IMG/VR virus record: IMGVR_UViG_2778261510_000005
DNA length: 64,000 bases
Source: a virus
Taxonomy: Duplodnaviria > Heunggongvirae > Uroviricota > Caudoviricetes
Reading direction: 5' to 3' (one strand)
Shown: positions 5,346-52,981 of the stretch, in pieces
Numbering within the stretch: position 1 is the first letter of the stretch
Layout: every line of letters begins with the position of its first letter
The notes under the pieces: generated by a model
Seen by the model: the letters and a program-made list of their open reading frames with translations, nothing else
Database searches by the model: none
What the model was told of the DNA's origin: nothing
Made by a program: the position numbers and the translations under genes

Positions 5346-5362
5346 ACAATTTATTAGAGCAA
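5346..5362 (-). promoter_or_regulatory. C1 operator upstream of the second icd/ant cassette
   Basis: CAATTTATTAGAGCAAA; 2 mismatches to the operator consensus. Confidence 0.65.
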
Positions 5363-5366
5363 ATAT

Positions 5367-9924: not shown

Positions 9925-10305
9925 CTACTCCGCAGAACCATACAATCTACGTAACGTGTCGGCGACAGAAGATACAGATATCTCTCCGGTCGCAGCCCCT
10001 ACGGTAAGGTCTGCCAGTTCAGGTGAATCAAATACCTGCACCCCGTTACGGCGTAGAAATAACAGCGCACTGTTTAGCGCGGTACGCTTATTGGCATCAT
10101 TGAATATATGCCCTCTCGCTGTAGCCACTAGGTAGGTGGCGGAGACTTCGAAAAGGTCGGTGATCTCTTCGTAGGCAACTCTGGCCTGAACTCTCCCGAT
10201 AATGGCCTCTGCCCTACCCGGATCTGACATTCCCGGCAGGCCGCCGTAGCGGTTTATATTCGCATCATGAAGCGCAATAAGTTCTTCCGGTGATATATGC
10301 CTCAT
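9925..10305 (-). CDS. doc: Doc toxin (death on curing)
   Basis: 126 aa, [78 protein letters not shown]; matches P1 Doc as I remember it. Confidence 0.95.
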
Positions 10306-10702: not shown

Positions 10703-12265
10703 ATGAAAATGACAAGTATTCAACAACGTGCAGAGCTTCATCGTCAAATCTGGCAAATTGCTAACGATGTCAGAGGTTCTGTCGATGGATGGGATTTTAA
10801 GCAATACGTTCTGGGCGCACTTTTCTACCGTTTTATCAGCGAAAATTTTTCCAGTTATATGGAAAATGGTGATGACAGCATCTGTTATGCGGCACTTGAT
10901 GACGGCATTATTACTGATGACATTAAAGACGATGCCATCAGAACCAAAGGCTACTTCATCTACCCCAGTCAGCTTTTCTGCAACGTAGCGGCGAAAGCAA
11001 ATACCAATGACAGACTGAATGCAGATTTAAATAGTATCTTCGTTGCTATCGAAAGCTCTGCTTACGGTTACCCTTCAGAAGCTGACATCAAAGGTTTGTT
11101 TGCTGATTTCGATACAACCAGTAACCGCCTGGGGAATACCGTTAAGGATAAAAATGCCCGCCTGGCCGCGGTTCTGAAAGGGGTTGAAGGGTTAAAGCTT
11201 GGCGACTTTAACGAACATCAGATTGACCTGTTCGGCGATGCCTATGAGTTCCTGATTTCTAACTATGCCGCGAATGCCGGTAAGTCCGGCGGCGAGTTCT
11301 TTACACCGCAGCACGTCTCTAAGCTGATTGCACAACTGGCTATGCACGGGCAGACCCACGTTAACAAAATCTACGACCCGGCAGCAGGCTCCGGTTCGCT
11401 GTTGTTGCAGGCTAAAAAACAGTTTGATGACCATATCATCGAAGAAGGTTTTTTTGGTCAGGAAATCAACCATACGACCTATAACCTGGCACGTATGAAC
11501 ATGTTTTTGCACAACATCAACTACGACAAGTTTGATATCAAGCTGGGCAATACGCTGACTGAACCGCACTTCAGAGATGAAAAACCGTTTGATGCCATCG
11601 TTTCTAACCCGCCGTATTCGGTGAAATGGATTGGCAGCGATGACCCGACGCTGATTAACGATGAGCGTTTTGCCCCGGCTGGCGTCCTGGCCCCCAAATC
11701 AAAAGCTGACTTCGCGTTTGTATTACATGCGCTGAACTATCTTTCGGCCAAAGGTCGCGCCGCGATTGTCTGCTTCCCGGGTATTTTTTACCGTGGCGGC
11801 GCAGAGCAGAAAATCCGTCAGTATCTGGTCGACAATAACTATGTCGAAACCGTGATTTCACTCGCACCGAACCTGTTCTTTGGCACCACCATTGCTGTAA
11901 ACATTCTGGTGCTGTCTAAACATAAAACGGATACCAAAGTTCAGTTTATTGACGCCAGCGAGCTGTTCAAAAAAGAAACTAACAACAATATCCTGACCGA
12001 TGCCCATATCGAACAGATTATGCAGGTATTTGCCAGCAAGGAAGATGTTGCCCATCTGGCGAAATCTGTTGCGTTTGAGACTGTTGTCGCGAATGACTAT
12101 AACCTGTCGGTGAGCAGTTATGTTGAAGCGAAAGATACTCGCGAAATTATCGATATCGGTGAGCTGAATGCTGAGCTGAAAACCACGGTCAGCAAAATCG
12201 ACCAGTTGCGCAAAGATATTGATGCGATTGTGGCTGAAATTGAAGGCTGCGAGGTGCAGAAATGA
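10703..12265 (+). CDS. hsdM: Type I restriction-modification N6-adenine methyltransferase subunit HsdM
   Basis: 520 aa with NPPY motif ([11 protein letters not shown]) and AdoMet-binding region ([10 protein letters not shown]); same length as EcoR124-family HsdM. Confidence 0.93.
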
Positions 12266-13431
12266 GCGAGATGAGTTATCTGGAAAAATTGCTGGATGGG
12301 GTTGAAGTTGAGTGGTTGCCATTGGGGGAAGTCTCAGCCTTAAGAAGAGGCAGAGTTATGTCAAAGGGATATTTAACTGAAAATTTTGGCCCATATCCTG
12401 TCTATAGCTCTCAAACTGCAAATAATGGGAAAATAGGTTCTATCAATACCTTCGATTTTGATGGCGAATATATAAGCTGGACAACAGATGGCGCAAATGC
12501 AGGCACTGTGTTCTATCGAACAGGTAAATTTTCAATAACTAATGTTTGCGGCCTGATTACATTAAAAAGTAAATACTCATTAATCTACAAATTTCTGTTT
12601 TACTGGCTAACAATAGAAGCCAAAAAACATGTTTACTCAGGAATGGGAAACCCCAAGTTAATGAGTCATCAGGTTGAAAATATACCTGTACCAATCCCCT
12701 GCCCGGATAATCCGGAAAAATCCCTTGCCATCCAGTCTGAAATCGTTCGGATTCTGGATAAATTTACTGAGCTTACAGCAGAGCTTACAGCAGAGCTTAC
12801 AGCAGAGCTTAGCATGCGTAAAAAACAATACAACTACTATCGCGACCAGTTGTTGAGTTTTAAAGAGGGTGAGGTTGAGTGGAAGACTTTGGGAACATTT
12901 GCAGATAATTTTGATTCTCTTAGAAAACCAATAACTAGTGGATTAAGGGAGACTGGAAATATTCCCTATTATGGTGCGTCAGGCATTGTTGATTACGTAA
13001 AAGATTATATTTTTGATGATGACCTGTTATTAATTTCTGAAGATGGTGCGAATCTTATTGCAAGAAATACCCCTATAGCTTTTAGCATTAGCGGTAAAAC
13101 GTGGGTGAATAATCATGCTCATGTACTTAAATTCAAAAACTACACTGAACAAAAATTTGTTGAATATTACTTAAACAATATCAATCTTACGCCGTACATA
13201 TCAGGAGCAGCCCAGCCAAAGCTAAATAAGAAAAACTTAGAAAGTATCCGTATTCCTAATCCATCACTAAAAGAAAAAGAGCGGATTGTTACTATTCTGG
13301 ATAAATTCGACACCCTGACTAACTCCATCACCGAAGGTCTCCCGCGTGAAATCGAGTTACGCCAGAAACAATACGAGTACTATCGTGATTTACTGTTCAG
13401 TTTCCCAAAACCTGAAACAGTCAGTAATTAA
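12262..13431 (+). CDS. hsdS: Type I restriction-modification specificity subunit HsdS (type IC-like, TAEL repeat)
   Basis: 389 aa, overlaps the hsdM stop; central conserved region carries [12 protein letters not shown] flanked by two target-recognition domains. Confidence 0.9.
12769..12810 (+). repeat. 12-bp tandem repeat GAGCTTACAGCA x3.5 encoding (TAEL)3 in the HsdS spacer region
   Basis: Perfect tandem copies at 12769-12780, 12781-12792, 12793-12804 plus a partial copy. Confidence 0.95.
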
Positions 13432-13552: not shown

Positions 13553-16500
13553 ATGACTCATCAGACATACACCATTGCTGAATCCAATAACTTTATCGTT
13601 CTTGATAAGTACATCAAAGCTGAGCCAACAGGCGACAGCTACCAGAGCGAATCGGACCTGGAACGTGAACTGATTCAGGACCTGCAAAATCAGGGCTATG
13701 AATTTATACCCGTAAAATCACAGTCAGCGATGCTGGCCAACGTTCGGGAACAGCTTCAGAGCCTCAATGGTGTGATGTTTAATGACAGCGAGTGGCGGCG
13801 CTTCACGGAGCAGTATCTGGACAACCCCAGCGATGGTATTCTGGATAAAATCCGTAAAATCCATATCGACTATATTTGCGACTTTATTTTTGATGACGAG
13901 CGTCTTGAGAACATCTATCTGATAGATAAAAAGAATCTCATGCGCAATAAGGTGCAGATTATCCAGCAGTTTGAACAGGCAGGTTCTCACGCTAACCGTT
14001 ATGACGTAACTATCCTGGTTAATGGCTTGCCACTGGTGCAAATCGAACTAAAAAAACGCGGGGTGGCGATTCGTGAGGCTTTCAACCAGATACATCGTTA
14101 CAGTAAAGAGAGTTTTAACAGCGAAAATTCCCTGTTTAAGTATCTGCAACTGTTTGTCATTTCTAACGGCACCGATACCCGTTATTTTGCCAACACGACA
14201 AAGCGCGATAAAAACAGTTTTGACTTCACCATGAACTGGGCTAAAGCAGACAATACACTGATTAAAGACCTCAAAGACTTTACCGCTACCTTTTTCCAGA
14301 AACATACTCTGCTTAATGTTCTGGTGAACTACAGCGTTTTTGACAGCAGTCAGACACTACTGGTAATGCGACCGTACCAGATTGCCGCCACCGAGCGCAT
14401 TCTGTGGAAAATTAAGAGTTCCTTTACAGCGAAGAACTGGTCAAAACCGGAAAGCGGTGGGTATATCTGGCACACTACCGGTTCTGGTAAAACCCTCACC
14501 AGCTTTAAAGCCGCGCGTCTGGCAACAGAGCTGGACTTTATTGATAAAGTCTTCTTCGTGGTCGACAGGAAAGACCTCGATTACCAGACCATGAAGGAAT
14601 ATCAGCGTTTTTCGCCAGACAGCGTCAACGGCTCGGAAAATACCGCAGGACTTAAACGAAATCTGGACAAGGACGATAACAAAATTATCGTCACTACTAT
14701 TCAGAAACTCAATAACCTGATGAAAGCAGAAAGCGACCTGCCTGTATATAATCAGCAAGTGGTGTTTATATTTGATGAATGCCACCGCAGCCAGTTTGGA
14801 GAAGCGCAGAAAAACCTGAAGAAGAAATTCAAACGCTATTATCAGTTTGGTTTTACCGGTACCCCTATTTTCCCGGAAAACGCCTTAGGCTCAGAAACGA
14901 CCGCCAGCGTATTTGGTCGTGAATTGCATTCGTATGTAATTACCGATGCGATTCGTGACGAAAAAGTGCTCAAATTCAAGGTGGACTACAACGATGTGCG
15001 GCCACAGTTTAAGTCTTTAGAGACAGAAACTGACGAGAAAAAACTAAGTGCGGCTGAAAATCAGCAGGCGTTTCTTCATCCCATGCGTATTCAGGAAATC
15101 ACGCAATATATTCTGAATAATTTCCGCCAGAAAACTCACCGTACCTTCCCTGGCTCAAAAGGTTTTAATGCTATGTTGGCAGTGAGCAGCGTGGATGCCG
15201 CGAAAGCCTATTATGCGACGTTTAAACGGTTACAAGAAGAAGCCGCTAATAAATCGGCTACCTATAAACCGCTGCGTATTGCGACAATCTTCTCCTTTGC
15301 CGCCAATGAAGAACAAAATGCCATTGGTGAAATTTCCGATGAAACTTTTGATACCAGCGCAATGGACAGCAGTGCTAAAGAGTTTCTGGACGCTGCAATT
15401 CGTGAATATAACAGCCATTTTAAAACTAACTTTAGCACCGACAGTAACGGTTTTCAGAACTACTATCGTGATTTAGCCCAGCGGGTTAAAAATCAGGATA
15501 TCGATCTGCTAATTGTCGTGGGGATGTTCTTAACCGGCTTCGATGCTCCAACATTGAACACGCTATTCGTCGATAAAAACTTACGTTTTCACGGCCTGAT
15601 GCAGGCATTTTCCCGCACCAACCGCATTTATGACGCCACTAAAACCTTCGGTAATATCGTCACTTTCCGGGATCTGGAACGCTCAACTATTGATGCCATA
15701 ACGCTGTTTGGTGACAAAAACACCAAAAATGTGGTGTTAGAAAAGAGTTATACAGAGTATATGGAAGGCTTTACTGATGCTGCTACTGGTGAAGCTAAAC
15801 GCGGCTTTATGACAGTAGTTTCAGAACTGGAACAACGGTTCCCTGACCCTACCAGTATTGAAAGTGAAAAAGAGAAGAAAGACTTCGTTAAACTGTTTGG
15901 CGAATACCTGCGTGCCGAGAACATCCTGCAAAACTATGATGAATTTGCCACGCTGAAAGCCCTGCAACAAATCGATCTTAGCGATCCTGTTGCGGTAGAA
16001 AAATTCAAAGCAGAACATTATGTGGATGATGAAAAGTTCGCTGAATTGCAAACAATTCGTCTCCCTGCTGATCGCAAGATTCAGGATTATCGTTCTGCCT
16101 ATAACGATATTCGCGACTGGCAGCGCCGTGAGAAAGAAGCTGAGAAAAAAGAGAAATCAACCACTGACTGGGATGACGTGGTTTTTGAGGTTGATTTGCT
16201 GAAGTCTCAGGAAATAAACCTGGATTATATCCTTGGACTGATTTTCGAACACAACAGACAAAATAAAGGCAAGGGCGAAATGATCGAAGAGGTCAAACGC
16301 TTAATTCGTTCAAGCCTGGGGAACCGTGCTAAAGAGGGCCTGGTGGTCGATTTTATTCAGCAAACGAACCTGGATGATTTACCGGACAAAGCCAGCATCA
16401 TTGACGCATTCTTTACGTTTGCTCAACGCGAACAGCAACGTGAAGCAGAAGCATTGATAAAAGAAGAAAATCTCAATGAAGATGCAGCAAAACGCTATAT

Positions 16501-16669
16501 TCGCACGTCTTTAAAACGCGAATACGCCACCGAAAATGGCACAGAATTAAACGAAACATTACCAAAACTTAGTCCGTTGAATCCGCAATATAAAACGAAA
16601 AAACAGGCAGTTTTCCAGAAAATCGTCTCGTTTATTGAGAAGTTTAAAGGCGTAGGCGGAAAAATATAG
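13553..16669 (+). CDS. hsdR: Type I restriction endonuclease/helicase subunit HsdR
   Basis: 1038 aa with SF2 helicase motifs (TGSGKT Walker A, DECH box) and an N-terminal nuclease region; same length as EcoR124I HsdR. Confidence 0.93.
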
Positions 16670-16747
16670 CCCAATTCGTGTTTTTCTTGCGGGTTCTTAA
16701 TTAAACCCGCAAGAGCTCGTGGGGTTCCAAATGGCTAATATACTCCC

Positions 16748-16835
16748 CTTACCCATGCGCGACGATGCCGCCAAAAGTGATAGAGAACAGCCAGAAATAG
16801 ATCGCGGCCATAATGATTTTGAATGCCGTGTTCAT
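16748..16835 (-). CDS. Candidate small hydrophobic peptide (28 aa), possible type I toxin or small membrane protein
   Basis: MNTAFKIIMAAIYFWLFSITFGGIVAHG with AGGAG RBS 8 nt upstream; not in the supplied ORF track (below its length cutoff); a plus-strand terminator converges on its 5-prime region. Confidence 0.3.
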
Positions 16836-16863
16836 ATTTTCAGCTCCTGTGATTGATTGGATA

Positions 16864-16894
16864 CATGCCGCGCCTTGCGGCATGTTTTTATTTT
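16864..16894 (+). terminator. Rho-independent terminator on the plus strand (CATGCCG-loop-CGGCATG + T-run)
   Basis: 7-bp perfect stem followed by TTTTTATTTT; preceded by TGATTGATTGG. Confidence 0.55.
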
Positions 16895-16917
16895 CACTTT
16901 CTCTGTTTTAAAAATCA

Positions 16918-16934
16918 AGATTTATTAGAGCAAT
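16918..16934 (-). promoter_or_regulatory. C1 operator
   Basis: AGATTTATTAGAGCAAT, 16/17 match; flanking context AAAAATCAAGA is nearly identical to that at 2141-2164. Confidence 0.75.
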
Positions 16935-17440
16935 TATTGCTGATGGAGAAGCGCGTTTTCATACTCCCTGACCATTAACGTAAGTACGCCGTGACTCCTG
17001 AAAACACGCGCCACGTCAATCTTATCTTCCAGCGCGAACGCAATTTTACTTAGACCAATTTTCTTCAGGAGATCAATCTTTGCTGGACCGTCATTTCTGT
17101 CATCGGTGGCAGGACGCATAGATAGCAAAGGCTCAGTCCCATTTGTTACGTGCTTACGCAACCAGGCTCGTGTTTTATCCCTGGCTATCTCACAGCGCCC
17201 GGTTACAAACCAGAGGGTGTAAATGCCGGACAACTGGCGCACCATATCAATAACTGGAGTGATGGGAGCATCAGTGTCACAGGCAAGGTTAAACTCGTTC
17301 CAGTGCTCTGTTAATGCACCTTTGCCAGGTGGTGGAAGTAAATGCAGCCTGTCTTCCGTTGCCTCTGATATCGTCCCATCAATATCTACTATGACGATGT
17401 ACGGACGTTCCTGGTGTGCGTGTTTATTGAAAATACTCAA
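16934..17440 (-). CDS. HAD-superfamily phosphatase-like protein (168 aa)
   Basis: N-terminal IVIVDIDGTIS (DxDGT) motif typical of HAD phosphatases; might correspond to a P1 pap-like gene. Confidence 0.6.
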   Translation of the reverse strand: MSIFNKHAHQERPYIVIVDIDGTISEATEDRLHLLPPPGKGALTEHWNEFNLACDTDAPITPVIDMVRQLSGIYTLWFVTGRCEIARDKTRAWLRKHVTNGTEPLLSMRPATDDRNDGPAKIDLLKKIGLSKIAFALEDKIDVARVFRSHGVLTLMVREYENALLHQQ

Positions 17441-17512
17441 ATGCCCTCCTCATTGGACGAAAAAAATGCTGGTGGGAGCACTCCACCAGCATTAAAAGTG
17501 ACACTGTAACTA

Positions 17513-18775
17513 TCAGCGAACGTAAATAGTGCCGCCGTTCTCTTTTTCCCATGCATCGCTACGTGCATAGCAAACATCGAGAAGTCTTCTTGCCGCAGTT
17601 TCCTCTAAACCCAATTCGACAACCAACTGCTCATGACGGCGGGTAACCACATCAAACAGGGTATGCAGCCCTTTAGTTGCCAGATCATCAATGAATTCCG
17701 GTTCGAACGGCAGCTCTGCATCTGCCAACATAACCTCTTGCGCCCACTCAACTCGACGGACCAATTCCGGGCGGCGGCTTTCCATCTCTTTACAGATCAA
17801 TTCATGGAAGAACTCTACCCAACCTTCCGGCTGGAACTCGCGGAAAATTGCCAACGGCTGGAAGTTTGGCATCAACCATTCGTTGATTCGGATATCAATG
17901 GCATAGCCCATGTCGCAGCAGAACTGATAAGCAAAGTCCAGCTTAGACACGATATAAGGACGCTCGTTATTGAACTCTTTAGGCGATGAGATCCCATAAG
18001 CCAGGAGGCGCGGGAAGAAGGATATTTGCCCTAACGTCGGATGAAGTTTGCTTGCAGGGAAACGGCGCTCAGTAATGCCATACATTTCCTTCTTGAGCGT
18101 CGCAAATTTGGCATTCTCATTAACCAGCGCGGTAACCTCTGCTTTTTTATTAGCAAATGCCACGCGCGCTTCGCTTGCATCTTTAATAGTTTTTTTGAGC
18201 TGTTGGTTAAGGTCGGCGACCTGCTTACGCAGTTCCTGTCGCTCGCTTTTAGCTTTGTTATAGCGTTTCTCAAGGTTAAAAGGATCAAGTTTCATGATCT
18301 CTTTATATTGAGATTTTAGCGTTGAAATCTGTGAGTTCCGCAGTTCAACCATCGCGGTCATTTCATTGAGTTTTGTTTCCAGCTCAATGCTTATACGTTC
18401 GGCATTATCAGCACGCTGGTTGGCGTCATGCGTCGCATCGTCGAGCGCGTCCTGTTGCTGGCGTTTCAAATGTTCAATTTGCAGCTGAAGCTCTTCAATT
18501 TCTTTATCCTTCAGACCGAGATCCAACTGCATATTTTCAGCTGCATCTACCAGGGAGTTATGGCTATCAGCTTCTGCGTTATAAACATCAATAAGCTGTG
18601 CGTGAAGCATCTCCGCTGACTGAACCGCATTATCAAAAAAACGCGCTGTGAGGTCATCACAACTAACGCGGCGTTGCGCGGCCCGGATGTTCTGGATAAT
18701 GGCCTGGATACCGGCATTCAGGACGTCAGGGATAGATACATTTTCGATTGATTGGTTTTGTGCTGAAGTGATCAT
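17513..18775 (-). CDS. Hypothetical protein with long N-terminal coiled coil (420 aa)
   Basis: Heptad-rich, charged N-terminal half (EELQLQIEHLKRQQQDALDD...) and a Cys/aromatic-rich C-terminal domain; no family recognised. Confidence 0.65.
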   Translation of the reverse strand: MITSAQNQSIENVSIPDVLNAGIQAIIQNIRAAQRRVSCDDLTARFFDNAVQSAEMLHAQLIDVYNAEADSHNSLVDAAENMQLDLGLKDKEIEELQLQIEHLKRQQQDALDDATHDANQRADNAERISIELETKLNEMTAMVELRNSQISTLKSQYKEIMKLDPFNLEKRYNKAKSERQELRKQVADLNQQLKKTIKDASEARVAFANKKAEVTALVNENAKFATLKKEMYGITERRFPASKLHPTLGQISFFPRLLAYGISSPKEFNNERPYIVSKLDFAYQFCCDMGYAIDIRINEWLMPNFQPLAIFREFQPEGWVEFFHELICKEMESRRPELVRRVEWAQEVMLADAELPFEPEFIDDLATKGLHTLFDVVTRRHEQLVVELGLEETAARRLLDVCYARSDAWEKENGGTIYVR

Positions 18776-19009: not shown

Positions 19010-19026
19010 ATTGCTCTAATAAAAAA
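19010..19026 (+). promoter_or_regulatory. C1 operator-like site, left member of an inverted pair
   Basis: ATTGCTCTAATAAAAAA; 11-mer core perfect, 3 mismatches at the distal end. Confidence 0.5.
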
Positions 19027-19050
19027 CGTGATGAGTGTACATCACGTTTT
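19023..19050 (-). terminator. Perfect 10-bp inverted repeat hairpin (AAAACGTGAT-N8-ATCACGTTTT) between the two operators
   Basis: Followed on the minus strand by a U-rich tract; sits between convergently oriented operator copies. Confidence 0.45.
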
Positions 19051-19058
19051 AAAAATAT

Positions 19059-19075
19059 GGAATTATTAGAGCAAT
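19059..19075 (-). promoter_or_regulatory. C1 operator-like site, right member of the inverted pair
   Basis: GGAATTATTAGAGCAAT; core perfect, 3 mismatches distally. Confidence 0.5.
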
Positions 19076-35820: not shown

Positions 35821-36169
35821 GTTGTAACCCTTGAATATCAACCACAGAAAGCTCGTCTTTGTAGAAAAAGGCCAGGTTGTGGCACCCCCTCGTTTGAGCG
35901 TATGAGCTGGGACCAATTTCGTTCTTCCAGACAAATGGCTTCAAATCCGTACGGCGAAGCATAAAAACGCGATTTGTTCCGCTCTGATTCCCAATGAGGC
36001 AAAAGCCTTCTTTCACCTTGATAGCCTGCAAGTTGTCGAGTTCACCGCTGGTTACACGGCTATCGAACTCTTTGCGGCTTATTAGCTCCATCTGCATCTG
36101 ACGACTCCAAACAAATGCCCATTGAAGGGCGATGGCTGAATGGTACCGAAAATACGACATAAAAAACAA
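35813..36169 (-). CDS. Hypothetical protein (118 aa) upstream of hrdC
   Basis: ORF overlapping the hrdC start by 8 nt, directly downstream of a C1 operator. Confidence 0.5.
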
Positions 36170-36185
36170 TATTTATTAGAGCAAT
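36169..36185 (-). promoter_or_regulatory. C1 operator
   Basis: ATATTTATTAGAGCAAT, 16/17 match. Confidence 0.75.
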
Positions 36186-51299: not shown

Positions 51300-51316
51300 A
51301 AATTTATTAGAGCAAA
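51300..51316 (-). promoter_or_regulatory. C1 operator upstream of kilA-repL (Op53-like)
   Basis: AAATTTATTAGAGCAAA, 16/17 match, 70 bp upstream of the kilA start. Confidence 0.8.
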
Positions 51317-52964: not shown

Positions 52965-52981
52965 AAATTTATTAGAGCAGA
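52965..52981 (-). promoter_or_regulatory. C1 operator at the c4/icd/ant promoter (Op51-like)
   Basis: AAATTTATTAGAGCAGA, 15/17 match. Confidence 0.7.

Follow-up and report, generated by a model that had tools for sequence, protein, structure and literature searches.

A conserved leader with a 28-codon reading frame beside the C1 operator Op88 of P1-family phage-plasmids: probable operon head or type I toxin–antitoxin locus?

Does a short hydrophobic reading frame that faces a strong terminator on the opposite strand mark a type I toxin–antitoxin (TA) locus, or does it belong to the head of a phage operon? The question was raised by a small region of the IMG/VR virus record IMGVR_UViG_2778261510_000005 (Caudoviricetes), of which a stretch of 64,000 nt, referred to below as the window, was analysed. 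Downstream of the restriction gene hsdR, an original prediction had described a 28-codon open reading frame (ORF) on the minus strand with a good AGGAG ribosome-binding site (RBS), a strong intrinsic terminator on the plus strand and an adjacent C1 operator, and had proposed a possible type I TA locus. These elements were found as described, with hsdR converging on the ORF. The resemblance to a type I TA system is superficial and limited to the layout, and membership in this class is not supported. The stretch was read, with an estimated probability of about 0.55, as the conserved head of a C1-repressed accessory early operon of P1-family prophage plasmids. Phage P1 is a research workhorse, and resistance and defence genes are often found on P1-like phage-plasmids.

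The reading frame and its promoter

The window belongs to a P1-family phage-plasmid. The region around the ORF was 94–99% identical to P1, P7, SJ46, RCS47 and other Punavirus genomes, as well as to 952 plasmids; identities of 96–100% were also recorded for P1, P7 and SJ46. In the P1 record NC_005856, the corresponding sequence is found between pap and pmgT, with the operator OpmgT and two predicted promoters, P1pmgT and P2pmgT. The record marks no small ORF and no hairpin with terminator there and leaves a leader of 190 nt empty. On the minus strand of the window, pmgS (17513–18775) and pap are followed by the operator, the promoter, the hairpin and the small ORF. All coordinates of the locus are collected in Table 1.

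The operator matched the 17-bp asymmetric C1 consensus ATTGCTCTAATAAATTT at 16 of 17 positions and aligned, at the homologous position, with the protein_bind feature of NC_005856 described as 'monovalent C1-controlled operator OpmgT; former Op88'. Abutting it is the promoter TTGATT-17-GAAAAT, which reads into the downstream genes and appears as a predicted promoter in the P1 annotation. Its position weight matrix (PWM) score of 9.11 was within the top 0.007% of window positions, a level expected 0.35 times per kb per strand. A standard spacing of 7 nt would place the transcription start at approximately 16885–16883, on the first bases of the hairpin.

The ORF was compared with all 591 ATG-started ORFs of 20–60 aa in the window. 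By its best 19-residue Kyte–Doolittle window (2.1) it ranked 12th in hydropathy, and a Shine–Dalgarno (SD) core of at least 5 nt was present in only four of the 591, but the combination of such a core with hydropathy of transmembrane (TM) grade was observed for this ORF alone. Approximately 0.08 such coincidences are expected per window.

Conservation of the reading frame in related genomes, which the original prediction had named as a test, was assessed in 81 usable loci gathered by anchoring on Pap, two of which were added by a Pap search of genome contigs. Of these loci, 79 had an intact 28-codon frame and 63 an identical peptide. No frameshift or nonsense change was found in the 84 nt of the ORF among the 79 loci, whereas the 48 nt directly upstream contained three kinds of frame-breaking change (a CAA→TAA nonsense change, a 2-nt loop insertion and a 4-nt deletion) in 21 of the 81. 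The probability that all three kinds would fall by chance into the upstream 48 of 132 nt is (48/132)^3, or about 0.05. Nucleotide diversity by codon position followed the same order as in pap (third > first > second), although few sites were available.

In about 50 loci, the stop codon of the ORF is followed by GGGGGATGC and the ATG of pmgT. Since the stop lies inside the pmgT SD, with a gap of 9 nt to the pmgT ATG, the ORF would be the first and probably a translationally coupled cistron of the cargo that follows in P1. About 25 loci carry hsd-type sequence after the ORF, and the other cargo classes have further genes downstream on the ORF strand. No minus-strand terminator was found after the ORF. 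In the window, the hsdMSR cargo is convergent, and the ORF therefore stands alone. Given its RBS, its frame kept across nearly all loci and its place between a regulated promoter and the next SD, the ORF has the look of a genuine cistron, and it is probably a real, translated micro-gene.

Contrary to the original prediction, the peptide is not too short to have been annotated. Annotations of a 44-codon version exist in SJ46 ('membrane protein'), phi456 (Orf75), JL22 and RefSeq plasmids ('membrane protein' or 'hypothetical protein'). The 44-codon start was rejected: its ATG lies inside the hairpin, it has no SD, and its frame is broken in the 21 loci mentioned above. The leader with operator, promoter, hairpin and ORF is left without this gene in the P1 annotation and is annotated with a wrong frame elsewhere.

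The hairpin and the T-run behind it constitute the terminator on the plus strand. Folding energies were −17.5 kcal/mol on the plus strand (z = −4.6) and −16.3 kcal/mol on the minus strand, with z about −4.5 for both. Under strict criteria (at least 9 perfect pairs, at least 5 of them GC, and at least 8 T in the next 11 nt), three terminators were detected on both strands of the 64-kb window, among them the one at 16863–16896, and none in 20 dinucleotide shuffles. On the minus strand, an equally stable stem is followed by AUCCAAUCAAUC, and the T-run is present on the plus strand only, so termination is expected for plus-strand transcription only. The complement of the T-run serves as −10 element and discriminator of the minus-strand promoter PpmgT. 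In all loci examined the hairpin was kept, with changes confined to the loop, the closing pair or positions compatible with G.U pairing.

Among these changes, a C→T substitution at the loop-closing pair was observed in 11 loci, giving G.U on the minus-strand RNA and a broken pair on the plus strand; in the spurious 44-codon frame, it also turns codon 3 into a stop. Other rare stem changes were G.U-compatible only on the minus strand in two cases and only on the plus strand in one, counts too small to assign the selected strand.

Table 1. Coordinates of the features of the locus in the 64,000-nt window.
Feature	Position	Strand	Remarks
28-codon ORF with stop (MNTAFKIIMAAIYFWLFSITFGGIVAHG)	16749–16835	minus	ATG 16835–16833, TAA 16751–16749; probable single-pass membrane peptide
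Leader, 27 nt	16836–16862	minus	SD AGGAG 16848–16844, 8 nt before the ATG
Hairpin, GC-rich	16863–16885	both	9 Watson–Crick pairs and a G.U; terminator stem on plus, predicted 5'-terminal stem-loop of the PpmgT transcript on minus
T-run (TTTTTATTTTC)	16886–16896	plus	completes the terminator; 9 T in 11 nt
Promoter P1pmgT	16890–16918	minus	−35 TTGATT (16918–16913), 17-nt spacer, −10 GAAAAT (16895–16890)
C1 operator Op88/OpmgT (ATTGCTCTAATAAATCT)	16918–16934	minus	1 mismatch to consensus; begins at the pap stop codon
Breakpoint (…CATGGGTA/N)	16749–16750	both	homology of all cargo classes ends here, inside the ORF stop codon
hsdR-proximal hairpin	16685–16714	both	11–12 bp stem, 16 nt after the hsdR stop; T-run before the stem, none after it on either strand
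pap	16934–17440	minus	HAD-type 3'-phosphatase / polynucleotide kinase-like; PF25109; upstream neighbour, same strand as the ORF
hsdR	13553–16669	plus	type IC, 1038 aa; convergent with the ORF

Searches with the peptide were carried out in family and sequence collections. No match was obtained in Pfam, NCBIfam or PADLOC at E ≤ 10, toxin families included, and PHROG returned a single family of unknown function (E = 0.16). Among 5.8 billion clusters and 1.84 billion representatives, no relatives were found outside the P1 family, the matches being P1-family copies of at least 92% identity. Distant blastn searches against phages added operator-like fragments only. The ORF was not found in the literature on pmgT, Op88, the P1 transcriptome or the peptide string, with the P1 genome paper lying outside the coverage.

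C1-operator-like sites with at most three mismatches were found 15 times in the window, compared with 0.37 expected. Besides Op88, 14 such sites were located at 110–126, 587–603, 2148–2247, 2695–2711, 5347–5363, 19010–19075 (a divergent pair), 22689–22705, 32636–32663 (an overlapping pair), 36169–36185, 51300–51316 and 52965–52981. This spread is consistent with the multi-operator immunity circuit of P1.

Two further features of the window were recorded. A second small, very hydrophobic ORF of 59 codons begins at 24522 on the plus strand, with a 4-nt SD and a 19-residue Kyte–Doolittle maximum of 2.47. Another of the three strictest intrinsic terminators lies between pmgS and pap at 17467–17491 on the minus strand, which also encodes both genes; because of it, pap, and via pap the small ORF, may be insulated from pmgS transcription.

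The boundary between backbone and cargo

The genes that follow the ORF differ between P1-like elements. The downstream block has been described as variable 'region 8' (PMC9603915) and as variable region 'RD-5', for which pSvP1 has a type I restriction-modification (R-M) system in place of the pmg genes (PMC6906374). Since pap and pmgT/U/V are non-essential in lytic growth (PMC10695390), the module is regarded as accessory.

Judged by its sequence, the window carries a type IC hsdMSR cassette as the substitute for the pmgT…humD block of P1. The genes hsdM (10703–12265), hsdS (12262–13431) and hsdR (13553–16669) lie on the plus strand and point toward the ORF. Beyond hsdM, minus-strand ORFs follow, including one of 126 aa at 9925–10305; from the gene order in P1 and pSvP1, they would occupy the position of phd/doc.

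A single-nucleotide breakpoint, corresponding to about 84476–84477 of P1 NC_005856, was common to at least six cargo classes and one deletion derivative (loci L001, L070 and L087–L090). The base that follows …CATGGGTA was A, A, T, C, T or G in six classes. The deletion derivative (L070) has the same left end and is joined to P1 sequence at GGATA/G, with a GGGTA/GGATA microhomology at the junction. The right-hand ends differ between the cargo classes; in two of them, P1 sequence resumes approximately 695 or 725 nt into pmgT. If selection merely kept the ORF intact, breakpoints could lie at any position downstream of it, and for this reason the precision of the boundary possibly has a site-specific or other mechanistic cause. 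In this arrangement, the unit of operator, promoter, hairpin and ORF constitutes the unchanging left border of a well-known cargo hot-spot whose pmgT…humD block is often replaced by type IC R-M cassettes.

A different arrangement was observed in about a third of the 952 plasmid matches, mostly F-type conjugative (or mobilizable) plasmids, which matched only window positions 16600–16828. In these plasmids, the end of hsdR is followed by the ORF cut at codon 3 by the end of an IS1 element, and InsA domains were confirmed by Pfam; an example is NZ_CP018105.1 (L091, 2501–2729 and beyond). The P1 record itself notes P1 sequence downstream of hsdR in R124/3 and EcoDXXI. This old observation is explained by the F-type plasmids, which carry the hsdR end together with P1-derived 16670–16828 and whose structure would imply a transfer of the type IC hsd cassette to F plasmids from a P1-like backbone.

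Alternative explanations

Several observations weigh against an operon head with a translated first cistron. Protein-level purifying selection was not demonstrable: the ORF variants comprised nine nonsynonymous and six synonymous changes, which in this closely related family did not differ significantly from the neutral ratio (binomial p 0.09–0.18). Harsh nonsynonymous variants such as L16Q and G22D occur. In two loci the ORF is replaced from codon 20, and in the F-type plasmids it is cut by IS1. At least five cargo classes lack the stop codon, which lengthens the peptide by 9–37 residues; in the classes with T or C after the breakpoint, the ORF is extended to 38–65 aa. In P1-type elements there is no known plus-strand gene or promoter that would need a terminator. 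Finally, the conservation of the leader and of codons 1–18 exceeds what coding would explain.

This last point was quantified along the locus. Nucleotide diversity was 0.10 at pap third positions and approximately 0.046 in the operator and promoter, fell to 0.005–0.009 over 16870–16781 (3' half of the hairpin, leader, SD, ATG and codons 1–18) and returned to 0.035 in the last codons of the ORF. Common synonymous variants numbered 0 of 15 in codons 1–18 compared with 45 of 162 in pap (p = 0.013), and segregating sites in the leader numbered 4 of 27 against 61 of 162 pap synonymous sites (p = 0.027). A stretch of 196 bp was 97.4–100% identical in phages whose pap genes were 94–96% identical. These values suggest a constraint at the RNA or DNA level, for which the variants are too few to assign the strand; variation at the locus was likewise too small for covariation analysis. 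Low diversity as a mere side-effect of cargo exchange was rejected as the sole cause. Diversity climbs in the last 10 codons, beside the boundary, and identical island haplotypes occur in both P1-type and hsd-type elements.

A constraint of this kind would also fit a block without coding function, acting as a 5' untranslated region (UTR), an RNA element or a DNA site, either in the control of cargo expression or as the flank of a recombination hot-spot, with the open frame being incidental. The near-neutral ratio of changes, the conservation reaching into synonymous sites and leader, the tolerance of stop-codon loss and C-terminal extensions, the single-nucleotide breakpoint shared by all cargo classes and the lack of relatives of the peptide beyond one closely related phage family all point in this direction. 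This explanation is nevertheless considered rather unlikely. An SD at ideal spacing combined with TM-grade hydropathy is rare in the window, frame-breaking changes were confined to the adjacent 48 nt, codon-position diversity is ordered as in pap, and the ORF remains intact even where no gene follows it, as in hsd-type elements.

The explanation by a type I TA or TA-like system holds that the peptide is a membrane toxin and that a plus-strand RNA ending at 16863–16896 pairs with its RBS and ORF, blocking translation or triggering cleavage. The RNA would be a dedicated small RNA (sRNA) or, in hsd-type elements, the hsdR 3'UTR. The peptide, with 28 aa and a hydropathy of 2.1, agrees with the small (<60 aa) hydrophobic TM-helix ORFs of such systems, and its RBS is strong. 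A strong terminator faces the ORF, and the 90 nt upstream of it on the plus strand (16781–16870) are the most conserved of the locus. The first canonical plus-strand terminator after hsdR is that at 16863–16896, so that hsdR read-through could reach it. The hairpin close to hsdR, contained in an 81-nt segment that folds with about −25 kcal/mol on either strand (z = −3.2 on the plus and −3.4 on the minus strand), lacks a trailing T-run on both strands and is therefore not a canonical terminator; it may act as a 3'-end stabiliser or processing site.

No plus-strand sigma-70 promoter above background was found upstream of the terminator by consensus scan, PWM scan or by eye in the sequence common to all elements, in the hsd-type flank or in 700 nt of the P1-type flank. 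The best plus-strand PWM score was 5.46, for which approximately six occurrences per kb are expected. As a candidate −10 element, CATAAT at 16809–16814 was rejected, having no usable −35. It follows that there is no dedicated antitoxin gene, in the window or in P1, and hsdR read-through is the sole possible source. Of the plus-strand RNA antisense to the RBS that the original prediction had envisaged, what stands is an hsdR 3'UTR in hsd-type elements only. The anti-Shine–Dalgarno CTCCT cited in its favour is present but, as the mere complement of the RBS, constitutes no independent evidence. On the plus strand of 16808–16891, Rfam gave sub-threshold matches only (GcvB with 20.3 bits against a gathering threshold of 42, E = 0.031; isrK weaker), which most likely reflect the resemblance of the 3' end to a terminator and do not count as evidence for an sRNA.

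On the toxin side, no autonomous constitutive unit was found: the sole good promoter of the peptide abuts the C1 operator, and the unit has no terminator of its own, the ORF being the first cistron of an operon in P1. The peptide is therefore expected to be silent in lysogens, unlike a constitutive type I toxin, and its mRNA would not build up there as post-segregational killing needs. None of the known toxin families (Hok/Gef, Ldr, Ibs, TisB, ShoB, Fst and others) was matched, and the SD-sequestering mRNA folds typical of type I toxin mRNAs were not significant (z −1 to −1.5 for folds other than the hairpin). In addition, some elements can dispense with the ORF. A type I TA locus is thus regarded as very unlikely.

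A bolder proposal combines both levels. The block of approximately 135 nt (hairpin, leader and ORF) would be a module for RNA-level control and docking at the fixed edge of the cargo hot-spot, hsdR RNA would act as cis-antisense to a C1-controlled membrane-active peptide, and the breakpoint would reflect site-specific cargo exchange. If true, a defence cassette would thereby be linked to a prophage 'toxin' in a manner resembling TA systems, but this is regarded here as a speculative idea of low probability.

Little likelihood is likewise given to a relic or accident, in which the terminator belonged to hsdR and was inherited by P1-type elements after cargo replacement, or arose by chance beside the AT-rich −10 of PpmgT, without function in P1: P1-type elements do lack a plus-strand gene or promoter upstream of it, its T-run doubles as −10 and discriminator of PpmgT, and, given the close relationship within the family (diversity about 0.1 at neutral sites), even a relic would not yet have decayed. 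On the other hand, the terminator is among the three strongest in 64 kb, its stem is kept in all loci with changes mostly G.U-compatible on the minus strand, and in about a third of P1-backbone plasmids a convergent hsdR points toward it.

Proposed course of expression and comparison with known systems

For the operon head, the following course is proposed. In the lysogen, C1 bound to Op88, a binding which is established in P1, would shut the abutting promoter. Upon induction or infection, the promoter would fire, and the transcript, starting at the hairpin base, would carry a 5'-terminal stem-loop with a possible role in RNA stability, by analogy with the 5' stem-loop of ompA. Ribosomes using AGGAG would then produce the 28-residue hydrophobic peptide, which may insert in the inner membrane; in P1 the ORF would serve as leading cistron of the cargo.

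On the opposite strand, the hairpin with its T-run would act as a one-way terminator against transcription from the cargo side, shielding Op88/PpmgT, pap and pmgS from antisense read-through. In hsd-type elements, a by-product would be an hsdR mRNA with a 3'UTR of approximately 225 nt, complementary to the whole ORF and its RBS, which could damp leaky expression of the peptide. With C1 operator, promoter, 5' hairpin and 28-codon ORF taken together as one conserved unit, the annotation is corrected, and attention is drawn to a possible early-expressed membrane peptide and to possible antisense interplay with hsdR.

Compared with type I TA systems (hok/sok, ibs/sib, ldr/rdl, tisB/istR-1, shoB/ohsC), the locus has in common a short hydrophobic ORF, a strong RBS and an opposite-strand terminator placed so that an RNA ending there covers the RBS. 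It differs in having no antisense promoter, in its control by a prophage repressor, in lacking its own terminator, in forming the first cistron of an operon in P1, in the absence of sequence kinship between its peptide and the toxin families, and in having no significant SD-sequestering fold. Excludon-like 3'UTR overlaps and the lambda oop RNA/cII pair also include an opposite-strand transcript that ends at an intrinsic terminator and is complementary to a phage gene and its RBS. Here, in contrast, the antisense transcript would be hsdR read-through, restricted to hsd-type elements.

The predicted start on the first bases of a stable hairpin, with 0–2 unpaired 5' nucleotides, resembles the 5'UTR stem-loops of the ompA type, although in the present case the start is predicted from promoter spacing. 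The peptide itself has no homology to the small membrane proteins KdpF, AcrZ and MgtS; it resembles these and single-TM phage peptides in its size, its single hydrophobic helix with small-residue motifs (AA, SxxxG, GG) and its position as a first or leader cistron.

Among the C1-controlled early operons of P1 (Op72-ant, Op51-ban, Op86-lpa), the locus corresponds to the unit Op88/OpmgT, with the same operator and predicted promoters between pap and pmgT. Unlike the P1 reference, the window has hsdMSR in place of pmgT…humD, and the P1 annotation names neither ORF nor hairpin. The locus is thus a member of the C1-controlled operator/promoter units of P1, namely Op88, whose first cistron and reverse-facing terminator had previously been overlooked or mis-annotated.

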